64,000 bases of DNA from an uncultured Clostridia bacterium (GCA_934746715.1 CAKVFI010000003.1:164741-228740), one strand, 5' to 3'. Counted from the stretch's first letter, positions 2,546 through 49,186 are shown. Numbers and translations are program-made. Notes: generated from the sequence alone by a model not told the origin.

Positions 2546-3595
2546 ATGGAAGAAAGAGATAGATTTATTAGCAGCACCAAAAATATGAGCGATGTTGAAG
2601 TTGAAAACAAACTTCGACCTATGTCTTTTGACGAATACACTGGGCAAGAAAAAATTAAAGCCAATTTAAAAGTGTATATTGCCGCTGCAAAAAAGCGTAA
2701 AGAAGCATTGGATCACGTTTTGCTTTATGGCCCACCGGGGCTTGGCAAAACAACATTAAGCCACATTATCGCCAACGAAATTGGCAGCCAAATCAAAATA
2801 ACCAGTGGCCCAAGCATTGAAAATGCTGCTGACCTTGCTGCAATTTTAACCAATCTCAACACAAATGATGTGCTTTTTATTGATGAAATTCACCGCATAA
2901 GCAAATCAGTTGAAGAAATTTTGTATCCAGCAATGGAAGATTACGCTCTTGATTTTATCGTTGGCAAAGGCCCAAGCGCACGTAGTATGCGCCTTAAAAT
3001 TCAACCTTTTACATTGATTGGCGCAACAACAAAAGCGGGCAATTTAAGCAGCCCTTTGCGTGATAGGTTTGGCATTTCTTGCCGTTTGGAACTTTACACA
3101 GTGGACGAAATTGCGCAAATCATCGCGCGTTCTGCCAGCATTTTGAATGTTAGCATAGATAAAGATGCAACTTATGAACTTGCTCGCCGCAGCCGTGGAA
3201 CACCACGTATTGCAAACCGCCTTTTAAAGCGTGTGCGCGATTACGTGCAAGTTGAAGATAAAGACAATATTGGCGTGGAAGATGCAAAAAAGGCTCTCAC
3301 TCTTATGGATATTGATGAACTCGGGCTTGATTATGTTGACAAACGCGTGCTTAAAGCAATGATAGAAAAGTTTGGGGGTGGCCCAGTTGGTTTGGAAACT
3401 TTGTCGGCAACCACAAATGAAGAAATTTCAACAATCGAAGATATTGTTGAGCCATATCTGATGCAACTTGGTTTTGTTTTGCGCACAAACAGGGGCAGAA
3501 TGGTCACACGTTTGGCGTATGAGCACTTTGGCTTGCCAGTGCCAAAATCTTTGCAAGTTGATGTAACTGAAGGGGAAGATAATGAAAGCAAGTAA
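2546..3595 (+). CDS. ruvB: Holliday junction DNA helicase RuvB
   Basis: [13 protein letters not shown], Walker [31 protein letters not shown]. Confidence 0.97.
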
Positions 3596-4673
3596 ATTAT
3601 CTAGTTTAACAACAAAAAAACAACCAGCAAAAAAGCAACCACAAGTGGACTATCAAAAATTGTCGACTTATGATTACTATTTGCCAGAAGAACTTATTGC
3701 ACAAACTCCACTTGAAAAACGAGATGAAAGCAAACTGCTTGTTTTTAACCGAAAAACAAAGGAAATCAAGCAAAGGCATTTTAAAGATATAACAGAATTT
3801 TTGCAAAAAGGTGATGTGCTTGTTGTTAACAACACTCGAGTTTTGCCTGCGCGGTTATATGGCAAAAAAGCAACTGGTGCAAACATTGAAGTGTTGCTTT
3901 TAAAACGCATTAATATGGACGAGTGGGAAGTGCTTATCAAACCGGCAAAGCGTGTTCCAGTTGGCACTGTTGTAACTTTTAATGACGAATTAAAGTGCGA
4001 AATCATGTCTGTTAAAGAAGACGGAAATCGCATTGTTAAATTTGTTTATGATGGCGTTTTTGAAGATATTTTGTCCCGCGTTGGTCAAATGCCGTTGCCA
4101 CATTATATCCATGAAAAATTGAAGGATAAAGAACGTTATCAAACAGTTTACAACAAAGTTGAAGGCAGTGCCGCAGCACCAACTGCTGGATTGCACTTTA
4201 CTAAAGAACTTCTTCAAAAAATTCAAGATATGGGGGTGGAGATAGTTGAACTTACCCTTGATGTTGGGCTTGGCACATTCCGCCCATGCAAGGAAGATGA
4301 CATAACCAAACACACCATGCACACAGAACATTATCATTTAAGCGAACAAGCAGCAGAAAGAATAAATTTGGCAAAAAAAGAAAACCGCCGTGTTATTGCT
4401 GTTGGTACAACCAGTGTGCGCACACTTGAAAGTGTTGCGTTAAAAGGCGTGCCACTTATGGCCGATGATGACAACACTAGCATATTTATTTATCCGCCAT
4501 ACAAATTTAAAATTGTTGACGCCCTCATTACAAATTTTCATTTGCCAAAATCAACTTTAATTATGTTGATTAGCGCATTTGCAGGCTATGAAAACACTAT
4601 GAATTTGTATGAATTTGCTGTTGAAAATCAATATCGCTTTTTCAGTTTTGGCGATAGCATGTTTATTGAATAA
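3582..4673 (+). CDS. queA: S-adenosylmethionine:tRNA ribosyltransferase-isomerase QueA
   Basis: [46 protein letters not shown] and [10 protein letters not shown] are typical QueA blocks. Overlaps the ruvB stop by 14 nt. Carries about 25 extra K/Q-rich N-terminal residues. Confidence 0.94.
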
Positions 4674-9056: not shown

Positions 9057-9996
9057 TAGAGATTTTACAAAGTCTAATAAAGATTATTTTAACAAAAATA
9101 AAATTGTTTTGATTGTTTTGGCGTTATTCCTTGTTGTTGGCATTCTTCTTGCTTGCACAGTTAAATTGCGTGGCAATTTTGAACTTGCCGGTTACAACGA
9201 GTTTTCTGTTAAAATAGGCAGCGAAACAAAAGTTAACACCGCATCAAAAAAGGTTGAACAAGTTGTCAAGTCATACAATTCTGGTTTTGACACAATTTTG
9301 GTTTATGGTGAAGGCGACGACACTCAATTAGTAGTTCGTTATTTGAAAGATTTGTCCGCTGATGAAAAAACAGAAATTGCAACAAAAGTTGCAGAAAAAC
9401 TTGGAATTGGCGTTGAAAATGTTAGTGAACACAATCATGTTGCAGCAGTTGTAAAAAACACTGATTACATCTTTGCAAGCGTTGCAATCTTGTTGCTTGT
9501 TGCATTGGCTTCATTGTTTGCATTTATTCGTTACAATGGGGCAAGCGCCTTGGCAGTTATCATCAGTTGTTTGATTGGTAGTGCAGGTTTTGTGTCAATT
9601 TGTGCAATTTTGAGATTGACAGTTGGAATGAGCATTTTCACAATTATGATTGTTTTGAATTTGCTTATTGTTTATGGCTGCTTGAATGTGTTTGAGTCTA
9701 TGCGCAAGGATTCATGGTTGGAAGCAGGCGACTACGCAAACGCAATAAAAACAGCAATGAATCAATCCAAATTTAGGATGAACGCTTTGGCAATTGCAGT
9801 GTTTGCATTTGGATTGTTGTTTGTGTTCATTGCACCAAGTGCGCTTAAATATGTTGCACTTAACCTTATGTTTGTGGCAGTTGTTGAACTTGCAGTTTGC
9901 TTGTTTGTTTTGCCATTTGTTTGGAGTGCGTGCATCACACATTGCAAAAAACGCGTTAAAAAAGTTAAGCAAGCAAAACCAACAGTGGAAGAATAG
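9049..9996 (+). CDS. secF: protein translocase subunit SecF
   Basis: I take the start at ATG 9049, behind AAAGGAGG, rather than the track start at 8980. SecF topology: one TM, a periplasmic domain, then 5 TM. Confidence 0.88.
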   Translation: MLNRDFTKSNKDYFNKNKIVLIVLALFLVVGILLACTVKLRGNFELAGYNEFSVKIGSETKVNTASKKVEQVVKSYNSGFDTILVYGEGDDTQLVVRYLKDLSADEKTEIATKVAEKLGIGVENVSEHNHVAAVVKNTDYIFASVAILLLVALASLFAFIRYNGASALAVIISCLIGSAGFVSICAILRLTVGMSIFTIMIVLNLLIVYGCLNVFESMRKDSWLEAGDYANAIKTAMNQSKFRMNALAIAVFAFGLLFVFIAPSALKYVALNLMFVAVVELAVCLFVLPFVWSACITHCKKRVKKVKQAKPTVEE

Positions 9997-10003
9997 TAAA
10001 ATT

Positions 10004-43534: not shown

Positions 43535-44119
43535 TTAAAACTTTGTGCGAATTAAGCCAACAACTTTGCCCAAAATTTGCAAATGGTCTGTGATAATAGG
43601 ACGCATAAAAGAGTTTTCTGGTTGAAGCCTAAAATAGCCATTTTCCTTATAATATCTTTTTACTGTTGCTTCATTGTCAATCAAACAAGCAACAATTTCG
43701 CCATTATTTGCAACTGATTGTTGAGAAATAACAACAAAATCTCCATCATAAATTCCAACATTAATCATGCTGTCACCTTTAACTTTTAAAACAAACATAT
43801 TATTGCCAGAAAACATATTTTCAGATATAATTATTTTTTCAGTTAAATTTTCTTCTGCTAAAATTGGTTGACCTGCAGCAATTGTGCCAAGCAAGGGCAG
43901 AGTGATGCTTGGTATGGTAGGCTCGTTTAATTCAATTGCTCTATTTTTGTTTTCATTTCTGGATATTTTGCCAAGTTTTTCAAGCTTTTTCAAATGATAA
44001 AAAGCTGTTGAAGTAGAATCAAAATTCAAACTTGCGCAAATTTCCCTTACAGTTGGCGGATATTTGTTTTTTTCTATATAATCGCAAATAAATTGGTAAG
44101 TTTTTTCGGTCATATTCAT
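43535..44119 (-). CDS. lexA: LexA repressor
   Basis: wHTH PPTVREICASL, cleavage site AAGQPI, Ser in VKGDSM and Lys in TVKRY. ATG 44119 lies behind GAGGTGA. Confidence 0.95.
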   Translation of the reverse strand: MNMTEKTYQFICDYIEKNKYPPTVREICASLNFDSTSTAFYHLKKLEKLGKISRNENKNRAIELNEPTIPSITLPLLGTIAAGQPILAEENLTEKIIISENMFSGNNMFVLKVKGDSMINVGIYDGDFVVISQQSVANNGEIVACLIDNEATVKRYYKENGYFRLQPENSFMRPIITDHLQILGKVVGLIRTKF

Positions 44120-44142
44120 AAATTTCACCTCAATTTTATTGT

Positions 44143-44171
44143 ATAATAACAAAAAAATACAATTCTGTCAA
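44143..44171 (-). promoter_or_regulatory. lexA promoter
   Basis: Minus strand: TTGACA (44171-44166), 17 nt spacer, TATTAT (44148-44143). Confidence 0.7.
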
Positions 44172-44182
44172 ACATTTGTTCG
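44169..44182 (-). promoter_or_regulatory. LexA (Cheo) box overlapping the lexA -35
   Basis: The minus strand reads CGAACAAATGTTTG, against consensus CGAAC-N4-GTTCG (one mismatch). Confidence 0.7.
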
Positions 44183-44215: not shown

Positions 44216-45268
44216 TTATACTTCATCATTTTTTAGTTTAACTTTGCCGGCAACTGCTTTTCTAATGTCATCACTGATTGCTGCATAGTGCTTTTTGGTT
44301 GTGTTAACATCTTTGTGACCCAAAACTTCTGCAACGATGTAAATGTCTTTTGTTTCCTTGTAAAGGTTTGTGCCATAGGTGGAGCGGAGTTTGTGAGGGG
44401 TAATGTTTTTTAAAGGTGTGGCAACTTTTGCATATTTTTTAACTAAATATTCCATGGTTCTAACCATCATTCGTTTGCCTTGGCTGGAAATAAACAAAGC
44501 GCGTTCTTCCTTTGGAATTTGCAAAGTTTCACGATATTGCAGATAGCTTTTTAAGGCTTCAGCTGTGTCCTCGCCAAAATATAGGATAACTTGATTGCCA
44601 CCTTTGCGCGTTACACGGAAAGAGTTTAAGTTAAAGTTTAAATCATCAATATTGAGCCCAACACATTCACTAACACGAATGCCTGTGGTTAAAAACAAGG
44701 ATAAAATCGCATTATCTCTAACTTTAAATTTTTCGTTGTATTTGCGTTGATGCTCGCCGAAGCCAGTCAAAGTATCGCAAGAATACATTAATTCTTCAGT
44801 TTCTTGTTGTTCCAAACGAATGATAGGTTTATCATGCAATTTTGGAGATTTAACCTTGCTGGCGACATTTGCTTTTAACATGTCTTTGTAAAAAAAGTAC
44901 TTAAAAAATGCTCGAAGGGTAGACAATTTGCGAAGTTTGCCACGCTCGCCATTGGTTAAAATTTCGCCATCTTCTTTGTCATAATATGACAAATATGCTA
45001 AAAATCTTTCAATAAGTTGAGCATCAATTCCATCAATATCGCTTAAAGTGATATCTGTAACTTTTTTGTTAAAAAATCCAGTTTCATAGGTAATCAAATA
45101 ATTAAAAAAGGTTTTTAAGTCAACAGCGTAATTTAAACGCGTTAGTGGGGTGGTGGTGTCCTGAATGCCAATAAAGAAAATGCTGCAAAAACTTGGCAAA
45201 TCAGTCAACATCTCATTCAATTTGCGCATATTGTTGCGATTTCTATCTAAATAATAGTTATTTGACAT
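44216..45268 (-). CDS. tyrosine site-specific recombinase (Xer-like, 350 aa)
   Basis: Catalytic set: TGIRVSE (Arg), HKLRST (HxxR), LGH, KKHY (Tyr). SD AAGGATG. Flanked by housekeeping genes. Confidence 0.9.
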   Translation of the reverse strand: MSNNYYLDRNRNNMRKLNEMLTDLPSFCSIFFIGIQDTTTPLTRLNYAVDLKTFFNYLITYETGFFNKKVTDITLSDIDGIDAQLIERFLAYLSYYDKEDGEILTNGERGKLRKLSTLRAFFKYFFYKDMLKANVASKVKSPKLHDKPIIRLEQQETEELMYSCDTLTGFGEHQRKYNEKFKVRDNAILSLFLTTGIRVSECVGLNIDDLNFNLNSFRVTRKGGNQVILYFGEDTAEALKSYLQYRETLQIPKEERALFISSQGKRMMVRTMEYLVKKYAKVATPLKNITPHKLRSTYGTNLYKETKDIYIVAEVLGHKDVNTTKKHYAAISDDIRKAVAGKVKLKNDEV

Positions 45269-45382
45269 ACAACATCCTTAATATTTAATAATTTTTAAAT
45301 AGGTATATAAATATTTTAACATCTTTGCGTAAAAAGTCAAAACAAATTTGGGATTTTTAAAAAAATTTTATTATAAAATTGG

Positions 45383-45412: not shown

Positions 45413-45424
45413 AAAAATAGTTTA

Positions 45425-45651
45425 ATTTGTCGTTTGAAAGGGACTAATGCAGGCTGGAAGTGTTAGAGAGTATCGCGGTTGGTGAAAGCGATTCATGAAA
45501 GGTTTGTGTGTCTACCCCTTGAGACACCTGGCAATGCGGGGCCGAAATGCACGGCAAAACAATGCATTTAAGAGTGGAACATTTTTGTTAATGTTCAAAT
45601 AGAGTGGCACAGTGGTTAATATCACCTCTAGTTTTAGTGGTGATTTTTTTA
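45425..45651 (+). promoter_or_regulatory. T-box leader (tRNA-Ser responsive) with terminator
   Basis: Stem I elements AGAGAG and GGTGAAA. Candidate specifier TCT-A at 45511-45514. T-box AATAGAGTGGCACAGTGG with UGGC (matches discriminator G). Terminator ATCACCTCTA-gttt-TAGTGGTGAT followed by T7. Confidence 0.85.
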
Positions 45652-45709
45652 TACTTTGTATAGTGTAAATTTAAAAACAATCACACAATATATAGATATA
45701 GGAGAAATT

Positions 45710-46996
45710 ATGATTGATATCAATTTAATTAGAAACACACCAGATTTGGTTAAAGAAAACATTAAAAAGAAATTTCAAGATCAAAAATTGCACTTGGTTG
45801 ATGAAGTTTTGGAGTGGGACAAAGATGTTCGCCTTTTAAAGCAAGAAGGCGATGATTTGCGCGCAAAACGTAACAGTTTGTCTCAACAAATTGGTTTGTT
45901 GATGCGTGAAAAACGCGTTGAAGAAGCAAACGAAATTAAGGCGACAGTTGTTAAAAATAATGAGCGCATTGCTGAAATTGAGCAACAAGTTGCTGAATAC
46001 AACGACAAAATTAAGCAAAACATGATGGCAATACCAAATATTATTGACCCATCAGTTCCAATTGGTAAGGACGATAGTCAAAATGTTGAAGTTCAACGCT
46101 TTGGTGAAGCAAAAGTTCCAGATTATGAAATTCCTTACAATGCAGATATTTTAAATGCTGTTGGTGGGTTGGACAAGGAAAGTGCTGGCAGAACATCTGG
46201 CGCAGGTTTTTACTATTTAATTGGCGATATTGCAAGGTTGCATGAAGCAATGATTGCTTACGCCAGAGATTTTATGATTAATCAAGGATTTGTTTACTGC
46301 ATTCCACCTTTTATGATTCACGGAGATGTTGTTAATGGCGTTATGAGTTTTGCCGAGATGGACGCTATGATGTACAAAATTGAAGGCGAAGATTTATATT
46401 TGATTGGCACAAGTGAACACAGCATGATTGGTAGATTTAAAGACCAAATAATCAAGGAAGAAGAATTGCCAATTAGAATGACATCATACAGCCCTTGTTT
46501 TAGAAAAGAGGGCGGAGCACATGGCTTGGAAGAACGTGGCATTTATCGTGTTCATCAATTTGAAAAGCAAGAAATGATTGTGCTTTGCAAGGCAGAAGAA
46601 GCAATGGATTGGTACAACAAAATGTGGCAATATACTGTTGATGTGTTTAGAAATCTTGAAATTCCTGTGCGTCAACTTGATTGTTGTTCAGGCGATTTGG
46701 CAGATTTAAAAGTTAAATCTTGCGACATCGAAGCATGGAGCCCAAGGCAACAAAAGTATTTTGAAGTTGGCTCTTGCTCAACATTAGGCGATGCTCAAGC
46801 AAGGAGATTGAACATTCGTGCAAAGGGCAAAGATGGCACATATCTTGTTAACACATTAAACAATACAGTGCTTGCAAGCCCAAGAGCAATTATTGCGTTT
46901 ATTGAAAATCATTATCAAAAAGATGGCTCAATAACAATCCCAGAATGCTTGCAAAGTTATATGGGTGGCAAAAAAATTATTATGCCAAAAAAATAA
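45710..46996 (+). CDS. serS: seryl-tRNA synthetase
   Basis: MIDINLIRNTPD... coiled-coil arm and class II motifs (FRKEGGAHG, RVHQFEKQE, GSCSTLGDAQARR). ATG 45710 lies behind AGGAG. Confidence 0.96.
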   Translation: MIDINLIRNTPDLVKENIKKKFQDQKLHLVDEVLEWDKDVRLLKQEGDDLRAKRNSLSQQIGLLMREKRVEEANEIKATVVKNNERIAEIEQQVAEYNDKIKQNMMAIPNIIDPSVPIGKDDSQNVEVQRFGEAKVPDYEIPYNADILNAVGGLDKESAGRTSGAGFYYLIGDIARLHEAMIAYARDFMINQGFVYCIPPFMIHGDVVNGVMSFAEMDAMMYKIEGEDLYLIGTSEHSMIGRFKDQIIKEEELPIRMTSYSPCFRKEGGAHGLEERGIYRVHQFEKQEMIVLCKAEEAMDWYNKMWQYTVDVFRNLEIPVRQLDCCSGDLADLKVKSCDIEAWSPRQQKYFEVGSCSTLGDAQARRLNIRAKGKDGTYLVNTLNNTVLASPRAIIAFIENHYQKDGSITIPECLQSYMGGKKIIMPKK

Positions 46997-47028
46997 TCAA
47001 AATTTAAAATTTTAATTAAACAATAAAG

Positions 47029-47063
47029 AACCAATCACACAAAAAATCTGTGGTTGGTTTTTT
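47029..47063 (+). terminator. terminator after serS
   Basis: AACCAATCACA-caaaaaatc-TGTGGTTGGTT followed by T4. Confidence 0.8.
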
Positions 47064-47510
47064 ACGCAAAGATATTGTTTTTGACAATAACTATCTTATT
47101 AAGTCAAAAATTATTGAATATAACAAATCTGCAATTAATATGATTTTTTGTAACTCAAAATGTTAAACATATAAAATGTCGCTTGCAAAACAATTTTTGA
47201 TAAAAATTGGATTTTAAATTTAAAATAGTCTTTTCAAATGTTTATCTTAAAATCATCAAAAAATAGGATAGTGCTAAAATGCTCTCAGAGCGATTTTGGA
47301 TAAAAAAGATGAAGGATTGGTCATCTAAAATTTTGTAGATTGATTTTAAACTAGGTAAAATTTTTTTCTTTATTAAAATTTTGCAATTTTAGGTTGAAAC
47401 ATTCAAACACACAATTAATCAAAACAAAGAAATGTTACACACAGACTTAAAAGAATTTTTAATAAAATAAAGTGTTTTGATAAAATTGTTTAAGAAGAAA
47501 TATTAAAAAA

Positions 47511-47592
47511 CTATCCACACAATAGTTAGTCGAAATTTGGTGCAAATTATAATAAACAAAACTAAATGTGGAAAAAATTAGGGTTATCCACG
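47511..47592. promoter_or_regulatory. cluster of three 8/9 matches to the DnaA box TTATCCACA
   Basis: cTATCCACA at 47511-47519 (+), TGTGGAAAA at 47567-47575 (rc TTtTCCACA), TTATCCACg at 47584-47592 (+). Confidence 0.4.
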
Positions 47593-47614
47593 CAAAATAT
47601 TGTCTATTTTATAT

Positions 47615-47650
47615 TATCTTTGCGCAAAAGAAGAGTTTTGCGCAAAGATA
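47615..47650. repeat. perfect 15-bp inverted repeat with a 6-bp spacer
   Basis: TATCTTTGCGCAAAA-GAAGAG-TTTTGCGCAAAGATA. Related 15-mers lie at 47059-47073 and, inverted, at 45321-45335. Confidence 0.95.
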
Positions 47651-47798
47651 TGTATGCAACTTTGTGCACTACTCTGTATTTATACACATTCAAGTTTTTG
47701 TGATTTTGTTTGTAAATTTATAATAACTTTCTTTGATTATATTACTTTTCTGCCCTATTAAGAGATTGATTATATTGCAAAGATTTTGTTGATTGTTG

Positions 47799-47826
47799 AT
47801 TGGTGTTGGCTCACCAATAATTTTTT
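47799..47826 (+). terminator. orphan plus-strand intrinsic terminator in the coding-free gap
   Basis: ATTGGTG-ttggct-CACCAAT-aa-T6. No annotated plus-strand gene lies upstream within 730 bp. Confidence 0.55.
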
Positions 47827-47842
47827 ATGATAATGCAATAGC

Positions 47843-47872
47843 ATAAAAAATGCCCAATTGAAATAATTGGAC
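47843..47872 (-). terminator. weak terminator after the ynbB-like gene
   Basis: Minus strand: CCAATT-atttc-AATTGG-gca-T6. The stem is only 6 bp. Confidence 0.35.
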
Positions 47873-47947
47873 ATTCCTACTATTGTTCAAATAATAAAAC
47901 GTAATTATAAACTCGTTTTAAGTTATTTATGTTAGTGTTGATAATTT

Positions 47948-49186
47948 TTAGATTAAACTTGCAATTGCATTTGTTAAACCAATTTTGCCATGAGCATAAC
48001 TTAATGAGCCTTGCAAATATCCTGCATATGGTGGACGGATTGGACCATCGCAACTCAATTCAATTGTGCTGCCTTGGTTAAAACTGCCACTTGCCATAAT
48101 TATTTGGTCTGCATAACCTTCCATATCGCATGGAACTGGCACTGTGTTGCTGTCTATTGCGCTGCCCTGTTGAATGCCTTTTACAAAGTTGATTAATTTG
48201 TTTGGTTCTTCAAATTTGATTACACACACAATGTCACTGATCGGTTGTGTTATGCTTGGTATTGTTTGGTAACCTAATGAAGAAATTGCCATGCTTGCCA
48301 AACGCACAATTTTAACACTTTGCGCCACAACGTGCGGTGCAGTAAAAATTCCTTGGAAAAACGCTTTGTAACCCAATTCATAGCCGCCAGCATCAAACCC
48401 CACTGCCGGGCTTGAAATTTGATAAGAAATCAATTCAAGTAAATCACTTTTGCCTGCTACATAGCCACCACATGGAGCAATGCCTGCCCCCAGATTTTTG
48501 ATTAAAGACCCAACAACAACATCTGCTCCAACATCAGTTGGTTCACGAGTTTCAGTAAACTCACCATAGCAATTGTCAACAAGGATTGTTGCATTTGTTA
48601 AAGTTTTAACTTCTTTAAGAACCTTTTCAATTTGTGAAATGGTTAAAGCGTTTCTCAATTCATATCCACGAGAGCGTTGAATATAAATCAAATCTGGATT
48701 ATGCTTTAATATAGCTTGTTTAACAGCTGGGATATCAAAGTCGTTATCCTTTAATTCAACTTGGTTATATTCAATGTTATAATCCTTTAAAGACCCTACA
48801 TTTTTGCCTTCTACGCCCCAAATAACATCGTGAAGAGTGTCATAAGGTGTGCCAGACAAACAAAGCATGTTTTGCCCTGGACGCAAAAGCCCCAACAAAC
48901 ATTTTGTTATTGCTTCTGTTCCGCAAGAAATCAATGGGCTAACCAATGCCCTTTCTGTGTGAAAAACGCTTGCAAAAACTTGGCAAAGTTTTTCTTTGCC
49001 CAAGTCGTTGTGCCCGTAGCCGTTGCTACCAGCAAAATGGTATGCTTGCACATTATTTGTGCCAAAAGCGTTTAGCACTTTTAATTGGTTTTCAAATTCT
49101 ATTTGTTCAATCTCAGCAAAAAGTGGTTTGCACTTTTCTTCTGCTGCATTGACTATTTCTATTGCTTTTTTGTTTAAATTAATCAT
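47948..49186 (-). CDS. methionine gamma-lyase family PLP protein (YnbB / aluminium-resistance-protein-like)
   Basis: YHFAGSNGYGHNDLGKEKL, GTEAI, VDNCYGEF, SLIKNLGAGIAPCGGY. Lies downstream of miaA as in other Firmicutes. Confidence 0.8.
   Translation of the reverse strand: MINLNKKAIEIVNAAEEKCKPLFAEIEQIEFENQLKVLNAFGTNNVQAYHFAGSNGYGHNDLGKEKLCQVFASVFHTERALVSPLISCGTEAITKCLLGLLRPGQNMLCLSGTPYDTLHDVIWGVEGKNVGSLKDYNIEYNQVELKDNDFDIPAVKQAILKHNPDLIYIQRSRGYELRNALTISQIEKVLKEVKTLTNATILVDNCYGEFTETREPTDVGADVVVGSLIKNLGAGIAPCGGYVAGKSDLLELISYQISSPAVGFDAGGYELGYKAFFQGIFTAPHVVAQSVKIVRLASMAISSLGYQTIPSITQPISDIVCVIKFEEPNKLINFVKGIQQGSAIDSNTVPVPCDMEGYADQIIMASGSFNQGSTIELSCDGPIRPPYAGYLQGSLSYAHGKIGLTNAIASLI

Follow-up and report, generated by a model that had tools for sequence, protein, structure and literature searches.

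A probable chromosomal dif site beside a XerS-like recombinase gene in an uncultured gut Clostridia lineage

A stretch of 64,000 nucleotides from an uncultured Clostridia bacterium (GCA_934746715.1, CAKVFI010000003.1:164741-228740), hereafter called the window, was analyzed with respect to a palindrome at positions 47615-47650. All searches of the source genome were confined to this stretch. The palindrome reads TATCTTTGCGCAAAA-GAAGAG-TTTTGCGCAAAGATA, and both direct reading and a repeat finder bore out the original prediction of a perfect 15-6-15 arrangement, with 15-nt arms that are 100% complementary on either side of a 6-nt spacer. It lies in a 951-bp gap (46997-47947) between the 3' ends of serS, on the plus strand, and a Met_gamma_lyase-family gene, on the minus strand; the gap is free of coding sequence and the flanking genes converge on it with a flip of orientation, as had been described. 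A tyrosine recombinase gene, hereafter called xer, lies 2.3 kb away, and the palindrome is very probably the dif site of the chromosome and the target of this XerS-like enzyme.

Across related genomes the conserved core of the site is a 14-6-14 arrangement, ATCTTTGCG[C/T]AAAA-N6-TTTT[G/A]CGCAAAGAT. In the window its arms are the 14-mers ATCTTTGCGCAAAA (47616-47629) and TTTTGCGCAAAGAT (47636-47649), which bracket the spacer GAAGAG at 47630-47635; no strand was assigned to the site. Each arm contains the self-complementary decamer TTTGCGCAAA, whose exact matches in the 64 kb are these two places only, and the 14-mer ATCTTTGCGYAAAA, with at most one mismatch allowed, occurs at just four places, namely 45321 on the plus strand, 47060 on the minus strand, 47616 and 47636. 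The full arm-spacer-arm site is present in one copy, and the only other perfect short-spacer inverted repeat of such size that the repeat finder returned is a 13-nt terminator stem. The palindrome lacks a T-run on both sides and is missing from the results of the terminator scan of the window, in agreement with the claim that it is not an ordinary terminator. No Rfam family matched in the 47.0-47.9 kb gap. The canonical 28-bp dif of the Firmicute XerCD (CodV/RipX) system (ACTTCCTAGAATATATATTATGTAAACT-like) gave no match in the window at up to three mismatches, again as had been stated. One detail was revised: the degenerate arm copy proposed at 47588-47602 is no copy of the arm and coincides in part with another conserved motif, TGTGGAAAA-N-TTATCCACG (47568-47593).

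The xer gene (44216-45268, minus strand) encodes a XerS-like tyrosine recombinase of 350 amino acids, an assignment that draws on NCBIfam, the Pfam match to Phage_integrase, an alignment of catalytic residues and linkage to the site. The best NCBIfam family was XerS, at 175 bits against a cut-off of 267, with residues 11-340 aligned to model positions 4-353 of 360; the runners-up were XerC (162 bits), archaeal XerA (159 bits) and XerD (153 bits). The suggestion of a XerS-type protein was therefore matched by the best-scoring profile over its full length, at a score below the cut-off. The catalytic R (in TTGIRVSE), K, H-x-x-R (PHKLRS), H (GHKD) and Y (HY) all aligned to those of XerD (1a0p), and the closest solved structures were XerD, XerA and XerH. 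No second recombinase or Xer paralogue was found in the 64-kb window, so the description of this protein as the only recombinase there, with a complete catalytic set (R-K-H-R-H-Y), was upheld. Thousands of close homologues are present in gut metagenomes, and those with names belong to Candidatus Onthoplasma or to a 'Clostridia/Christensenellaceae bacterium'; the NCBI taxonomy places the genus Onthoplasma in Christensenellaceae.

The site coincides with a turning point in strand composition. The cumulative G-C curve reaches its maximum at 48043, about 400 bp from the palindrome, a peak that is a local maximum since it was computed for the window. GC skew is positive to the left of the site and negative to the right, and gene orientation is plus as far as about 39 kb and minus from 47.9 kb on. 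The opposite skew signs, the converging genes and the cumulative peak together indicate that replication forks and genes converge at the site, as expected of a terminus and not of an origin. A skew and gene-orientation plot had been proposed earlier as a check, and within the window, as distinct from the complete replicon, its outcome favored the proposal. A replication origin, which the DnaA-box-like motifs described below might suggest, was rejected, as skew and gene orientation are convergent rather than divergent.

A polar sequence motif changes strand at the same position. An unbiased k-mer scan of the window identified AGGGCA (mostly AGGGCAR) as its most one-sided hexamer, with 17 copies on the plus strand and none on the minus strand to the left of the palindrome, and none on the plus strand and 13 on the minus strand to the right. 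The copies nearest the core are at 46824-46829 (plus strand) and 47751-47756 (minus strand), and the strand switch falls between 46824 and 47751. Three of the left-side copies sit on the non-coding strand of minus-strand genes, which indicates that the bias tracks the replichore and not the coding strand. Over 40 related loci, the counts were 102 copies directed toward the site and 10 in the opposite direction. The L. lactis FtsK-orienting polar sequence (KOPS), GAAGAAG, showed a weak skew in the related loci, 52 to 30. The polarity of AGGGCA matches the behavior of FtsK-orienting sequences, and this hexamer is a likely candidate for the motif that FtsK would read in this lineage.

Conservation was assessed in a scan of one genome per species across 185,579 species with the pattern TCTTTGCGYAAAA-N6-YTTTRCG, which matched 85 loci. 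Roughly half of these are unrelated look-alikes in other phyla. They include Peribacillus (L030, L031, L037, L044, L049, L059 and L065), in which genomes and a plasmid carry several ATCTTTGCGTAAAAT-N5-ATTTTACGAAGATAAT copies, and Methanomicrobiales (L024, L039 and L088), with ATCTTTGCGCAAAATAATAATTTTGCGAT common to the three methanogens; further unrelated matches came from Prochlorococcus and Treponema. About 45 metagenome-assembled genomes (MAGs) assigned to Onthoplasma, Christensenellaceae or 'Clostridia' carry the site, most of them as a full palindrome and most without a prophage. In these the site occurs at one locus per genome, always beside the Met_gamma_lyase gene and serS-xer-lexA, and this single, invariably xer-linked locus per species genome is in keeping with the original proposal. 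Two loci were recorded in one bin, MAG Lapin-014__bin9 (L052 and L075), with two different xer-serS-lexA-dif sets whose xer products are 82% and 83% identical to that of the window. The two different sets make this look like a mixed bin of two strains and not like two dif sites per chromosome.

Variation within the site was examined in 34 species with xer identities of 77-91%. The arms are invariant but for one position, which changes on both arms together except in two mixed cases: 17 species have C/G and 15 have T/A. The spacer takes six forms (GCCTTC, CAACAC, CTCTTC, CACTTC, CCCTTC and GTCTAG) and has the same orientation relative to the flanking genes in all 34. In more distant relatives, whose xer products are 49-57% identical (L083, L020, L081, L029 and L042), serS is not interposed, and the site precedes xer by 140-250 bp; in L061 and L066 (51-52% identical) a site with a 6-bp spacer lies about 750 bp upstream of xer. 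The linkage of xer and site thus holds down to 49% identity, including lineages without sign of microviruses, and each of the three distant proteins scanned (L083, L042 and L029) also scored best against XerS, at 167-207 bits. Judged from these arrangements, the T-box-serS unit was interposed between xer and the site in the Onthoplasma-like clade alone. Three of these loci have a pair of full palindromes separated by about 130-190 bp, with spacers of 6 bp in one and 8 bp in the other (L061 at 982-1017 and 1205-1238, L066 at 2963-2998 and 3187-3220, L029 at 4425-4458 and 4590-4625). In L029 the palindrome closer to the start of xer is a full 14-8-14 copy, 50-85 bp upstream of the gene, and L061 and L066 have a similar copy further upstream.

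Direct traces of recombination at the site were found in sister strains and other close relatives from the gut. Contigs encoding an identical recombinase protein fall into two classes, one with an empty site and one in which the site holds a 5.3-kb Microviridae prophage. The prophage genes encode capsid F, a Chlamydia-phage-type scaffold, ORF5, Rep and a small protein of the ribbon-helix-helix or helix-turn-helix type; gene content, the list of open reading frames and a Pfam scan revealed no recombinase in the L005 and L012 prophages, nor room for one. In the first lineage the empty site consists of left arm ATCTTTGCGTAAAA, spacer CACTTC and right arm TTTTACGCAAAGAT. The left junction (attL) joins the host arm ATCTTTGCGTAAAA and CACTTC to a degenerate phage arm, TTTTGCGAGTAAAT, and the right junction (attR) joins ATCTTTGCGCAAAA, which has the phage-type C, and CACTTC to the host arm TTTTACGCAAAGAT. 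These hybrid junctions place the exchange between position 10 of the left arm and the start of the right arm, that is, in or at the spacer. In the second lineage the empty site (ATCTTTGCGCAAAA, CTCTTC, TTTTGCGCAAAGAT) is identical to the palindrome of the window; attR is identical to the empty site, and attL reads ATCTTTGCGCAAAA, CCCTTC, CTTTACGCAAAAAT, with a spacer that differs from that of the empty site at position 2. These junctions fit an exchange at the border of left arm and spacer. Junctions of the same polarity were found in three more species (L033, L034 and L087).

In a free circular microvirus from rodent feces (bajarodmic virus 781, PQ007018.1), the non-coding DNA that follows Rep contains TATCTTTGCGCAAAA-CGCTTC. 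Scans of IMG/VR revealed no free phage closely related to either of the two prophages, and the 64-kb window itself contains no prophage. A decayed prophage between the core and the Met_gamma_lyase gene was also considered and rejected: blastn and tblastx comparisons of three microviruses with host intergenic regions showed no similarity beyond the arm and about 40 nt of flank. Integrase-less gokushoviruses have been shown experimentally to integrate at the dif site of E. coli in dependence on XerC and XerD, and in those insertions variation affects the spacer and one arm of the phage-side motif, next to a conserved host-side motif (PMC7062461). By their sequence features, the prophages at this site in the relatives are mobile elements exploiting Xer (IMEX), with no recombinase of their own, a host dif and hybrid dif-like flanks; a free dif mimic, of one arm and spacer, is that of PQ007018.1.

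The core is accompanied by solitary copies of its arm. The sequence ATCTTTGCGTAAAAA occupies 45321-45335 on the plus strand and its exact reverse complement lies at 47059-47073. Two exact 15-nt inverted copies are therefore present, as had been claimed; the further statement that they bracket serS as a unit was not sustained, the copy on the xer side being a promoter element and the other one of a core-directed set. The predicted xer promoter (45313-45340, minus strand) consists of TTGACT, a 16-nt spacer and TG-n-TAAAAT according to a promoter scan, and the solitary half-site TTTTACGCAAAGAT at 45321-45334 (minus strand) fills the spacer. The same layout, a -35-like TTGTT or TTGAC followed by TTTTACGCAAAGAT and a TG-n-TATAAT-like element, was seen upstream of xer in 14 of 14 species. 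On the simplest reading, the promoter half-site is probably an operator for autoregulation of xer by the arm-binding protein. In some relatives (L011 at 9985-10003, and upstream of xer in L036, L043, L068 and L086) the start codon lies 7-10 nt past the predicted -10 element, which suggests a leaderless xer mRNA in those species.

The second solitary copy in the window, TTTTACGCAAAGAT at 47060-47073, is listed on the plus strand and reads toward the core, and its T-run forms the U-tract of the serS terminator hairpin at 47029-47059 (-13.6 kcal/mol), an overlap already pointed out in the original prediction. The 34 species together have 48 such half-sites within 1.2 kb of the core, which flank it on one side or on both and frequently form pairs with a spacing of 28-58 bp. 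They lie 280-1080 bp from the core on both sides, and all 48 read 5'-TTTTRCGCAAAGAT-3' toward it. In 17 cases, the copy in the window among them, the half-site directly follows a stable hairpin and its T-run serves as the terminator U-tract. The 14-mer is invariant while its surroundings vary, which indicates selection. An origin of the half-sites as decayed attL or attR remnants was ruled out, as remnants would point opposite to the orientation observed in 48 of 48.

Further conserved elements flank the core. On the serS side, 22 bp away, an inverted pair of DnaA-box-like motifs, TGTGGAAAA-N-TTATCCACG (47568-47593, no strand assigned), was recognized in an anchored alignment of 34 species and with MAFFT; its members are at 47568-47576 (TGTGGAAAA) and 47585-47593 (TTATCCAC[A/G]) and are conserved in related loci L006-L097. 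A further DnaA-box-like sequence, TATCCACA, is at 47512-47519. On the Met_gamma_lyase side the flank at 47651-47690 (minus strand) is homologous to DNA beside the intact arm of a microvirus attachment site (attP), and blastn aligned bajarodmic virus 781 with this flank, arm and spacer over 59 nt (76%, E 6e-6). The block TGTGGAtaa-N-aGGGcAGTG is conserved on this side in host species, and three microviruses carry it beside their intact arm; the shared block points either to mimicry of an accessory element by the phages or to a phage origin of the host flank. TGTGGA-type motifs on both sides are absent from the distant lineages. The serS-dif interval also contains a conserved block at 47278-47326, with a small hairpin and T-run at 47280-47297 and a second hairpin, AGATGA-N8-TCATCT, at 47307-47326; in L023 the stem of the latter shows partly compensatory changes. 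The block has no Rfam match and could be a small RNA or a protein-binding element.

The skew turning point, the polarity of AGGGCA, the conservation, the single copy, the linkage to xer and the hybrid prophage junctions are the observations that argue for a dif site. The original prediction of a dif-like core for a single XerS/XerH-type recombinase at the terminus drew support from the skew, the AGGGCA flip, the linkage, the XerS match and the prophages. We infer from these a scheme in which the protein binds the site, resolves chromosome dimers there under the control of FtsK and regulates its own gene. Each of the two identical 14-bp arms would be bound by one recombinase monomer. A chromosome dimer would bring two sites together at the division septum, where the resulting tetramer would restore monomers through strand exchange at both borders of the asymmetric 6-bp spacer. 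The asymmetry of the spacer would give polarity to an otherwise symmetric site, whose orientation on the chromosome is kept in all species, and AGGGCA(R), pointing inward from both replichores, would be the likely guide for the FtsK translocase. The arm copy in the xer promoter would probably let the recombinase repress its own gene. Integrase-less Microviridae, in which a good arm and a matching spacer are combined with a degenerate second arm, would insert by means of the host enzyme.

Several observations weigh against this interpretation. The recombinase scores below the curated XerS cut-off (175 versus 267 bits) and barely above XerC and XerA. A xerC/xerD pair and a canonical dif were looked for in 64 kb of the genome, where neither is present, and the single-copy count depends on MAGs, which may be incomplete. 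The AGGGCA bias derives from short stretches and in part from the copy in the conserved flank. The sole example of a free phage, PQ007018.1, shows no recognizable second arm, and IMG/VR, scanned with the prophage Rep protein and with two patterns of arm, spacer and arm, yielded no matching attP. A plain dif model would predict neither the TGTGGA motifs nor the solitary half-sites. For binding and cleavage of the site by this particular protein the evidence is indirect, namely the crossover at the spacer in the prophage junctions.

Four competing explanations were weighed. The palindrome might be only a phage attachment site, at which microviruses insert through some recombinase and the host resolves no dimers. 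That the direct evidence for recombination at the site consists of prophage junctions only, that one flank resembles phage DNA and that the XerCD/dif search covers the 64-kb window only would all suit such a site. A pure phage entry site, however, would give the host no reason for conservation, and one copy with invariant arms is kept in about 45 species, most of them prophage-free. The skew turning point and the polar motif flip at the site, together with a chromosomal Xer-family gene that stays linked down to 49% identity, also in lineages without sign of microviruses, make this explanation improbable. Less probable again is that the palindrome and half-sites are operators for xer, serS or neighboring genes, bound by the recombinase acting purely as a repressor or by another protein. 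The half-site exactly between the -35 and -10 elements of the xer promoter in 14 of 14 species speaks for regulation, and the symmetric co-variation of the arms would suit any dimeric DNA-binding protein. The full palindrome, however, lies between convergent gene ends with no promoter there, an operator has no need of a conserved spacer orientation, and only a strand-exchange enzyme could produce hybrid junctions whose crossover is at the spacer; a regulatory half-site in the promoter is compatible with a dif site and included in that interpretation.

The half-sites at 45321 and 47060 might alternatively mark an invertible or mobile T-box-serS cassette that is flipped or moved by the recombinase. 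Exact 15-nt inverted copies do flank T-box-serS, and the absence of serS from this position in distant relatives means that it arrived by some rearrangement. The orientation of serS relative to xer is nevertheless the same in the 14 of 14 species examined, the copy near xer is an element of its promoter, and the other is one of the core-directed half-sites, which are present also beyond the core. Moreover, the flanking half-sites are single arms without a partner arm or spacer and therefore cannot form a core site, so that a cassette seems very unlikely. A structural hairpin or bidirectional terminator, for which the position between convergent genes and a possible 15-bp stem could be cited, is scarcely credible: there is no T-run on either side and no entry in the terminator scan, serS has a terminator of its own at 47029-47063, the arms are invariant in sequence across species beyond mere complementarity, and prophages recombine at the palindrome. 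A dif site used by the XerS-like recombinase thus remains the strongly favored interpretation.

A more elaborate version of this interpretation is offered tentatively, as a possibility that we regard as rather doubtful. The dif core may lie within a purpose-built 'dif island', made up of the inward-pointing half-sites, the half-site in the promoter and the flanking DnaA-box-like TGTGGA(A/T)A motifs, an arrangement not described for any Xer system. The recombinase would then repress its own gene and build a polar or looped nucleoprotein structure that controls the timing and direction of recombination. If so, the structure could serve as a topological filter, as a device that stops or loads FtsK, or as a block to incoming transcription or replication, and the microviruses would have copied a part of it, namely one arm and the adjacent flank. 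The inward-pointing half-sites themselves are possibly a new layer on Xer/dif.

Between xer and the core, in the Onthoplasma-like clade only, lies a plus-strand unit (45424-46996) that comprises a T-box leader (45424-45632) and serS (45711-46996). The leader matched the Rfam T-box family at 60.7 bits (E 4e-12), below the gathering score of 93, and is for this reason missed at the default threshold. Directly downstream of xer is lexA (43535-44152, minus strand; NCBIfam LexA, 196 bits), preceded by a LexA-box-like sequence, CGAACAAATGTTTG, at 44169-44182 (minus strand), which has the conventional CGAAC-N4-GTTTG form and belongs to lexA. The palindrome was considered as a LexA operator and this was ruled out, as lexA has this conventional box of its own. 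The xer-lexA neighborhood is kept even where xer is only about 50% identical, and a link between the SOS response and the xer-lexA locus is possible.

Extra copies of the arm motif outside the crossover site occur in the Tn4430 TnpI resolution site, with its accessory repeats, and in FRT, with its third repeat. Those repeats abut the core, whereas the copies described here lie 280-1080 bp away on both sides, all inward-pointing, with one in the recombinase promoter. A symmetric site also poses the question of how the order of strand exchange is set. Candidates are the conserved spacer orientation, the one-sided AGGGCAG flank, the inward half-sites and the promoter half-site.

With regard to the phages, the XerCD/dif system used by enterobacterial gokushoviruses (PMC7062461) and the Bacteroidetes microvirus proviruses (PMC3091885) likewise involve integrase-less Microviridae at a host dif. 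The gokushovirus insertions share with the present ones a conserved host motif and a phage-derived motif that is degenerate in one arm and has a variable spacer. They differ in that a XerC/XerD pair acts there on a 28-bp 11-6-11 site, compared with a XerS-like enzyme and a symmetric 14-6-14 site here, and in that the arm of the phages here is accompanied by about 40 nt similar to the host flank. Gokushovirus prophages were reported to be found in no sequenced genomes outside enterobacteria (PMC7062461), and no microvirus prophages in Clostridia were reported in the literature searched. The arm motif links gut microviruses, including PQ007018.1, to Christensenellales-like hosts.

Among single-recombinase systems, XerL/dif of Legionellales (10.1101/2021.09.12.459815) is similar in acting at the terminus and in having been recognized through an integrating element with a dif mimic, LME-1. 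XerL was shown experimentally to be necessary and sufficient, whereas the evidence here is comparative, and the phylum, the site sequence and the type of mobile element differ. XerH/difH of Helicobacter and Campylobacter and XerA/dif of archaea also combine a single recombinase with inverted arms and a short center, and both enzymes are among the closest solved structures; their sequence matches are weaker than those of XerS or XerD and their arm sequences are unrelated.

The nearest counterpart is XerS/difSL, in which XerS has 356 amino acids, difSL measures 31 bp, with arms that are unequal and imperfect around an 11-bp central region, and gene and site form one module (PMC5357621). Both systems have one long Xer-family recombinase (350 amino acids here versus 356), for which XerS is the top NCBIfam match, and both have a module of gene and site at the terminus, with the two adjacent (140-250 bp) in the distant relatives and 2.3 kb apart in the window. 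The arm cores are also alike, TTTCCGAAAA in difSL and TTTGCGCAAAA here. The differences are the scores of 175 bits for the protein of the window and 167-207 for the distant ones versus the cut-off of 267, the 14-6-14 site with identical arms versus 31 bp with an 11-bp center and unequal arms, the T-box-serS unit between gene and site, the solitary and promoter half-sites, and a host from Clostridia and not Streptococcaceae. The sequence of the present site was not found in the literature searched, where XerS-type systems are confined to streptococci and lactococci, apart from a xerS gene noted in one Lactobacillus helveticus genome. A related single-recombinase Xer system with a different, fully symmetric site can now be placed in an abundant uncultured lineage of gut Clostridia. 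On the comparisons made here, the system resembles XerS/difSL and other single-recombinase Xer systems and, by its profile score and site layout, is not a strict member of XerS/difSL.

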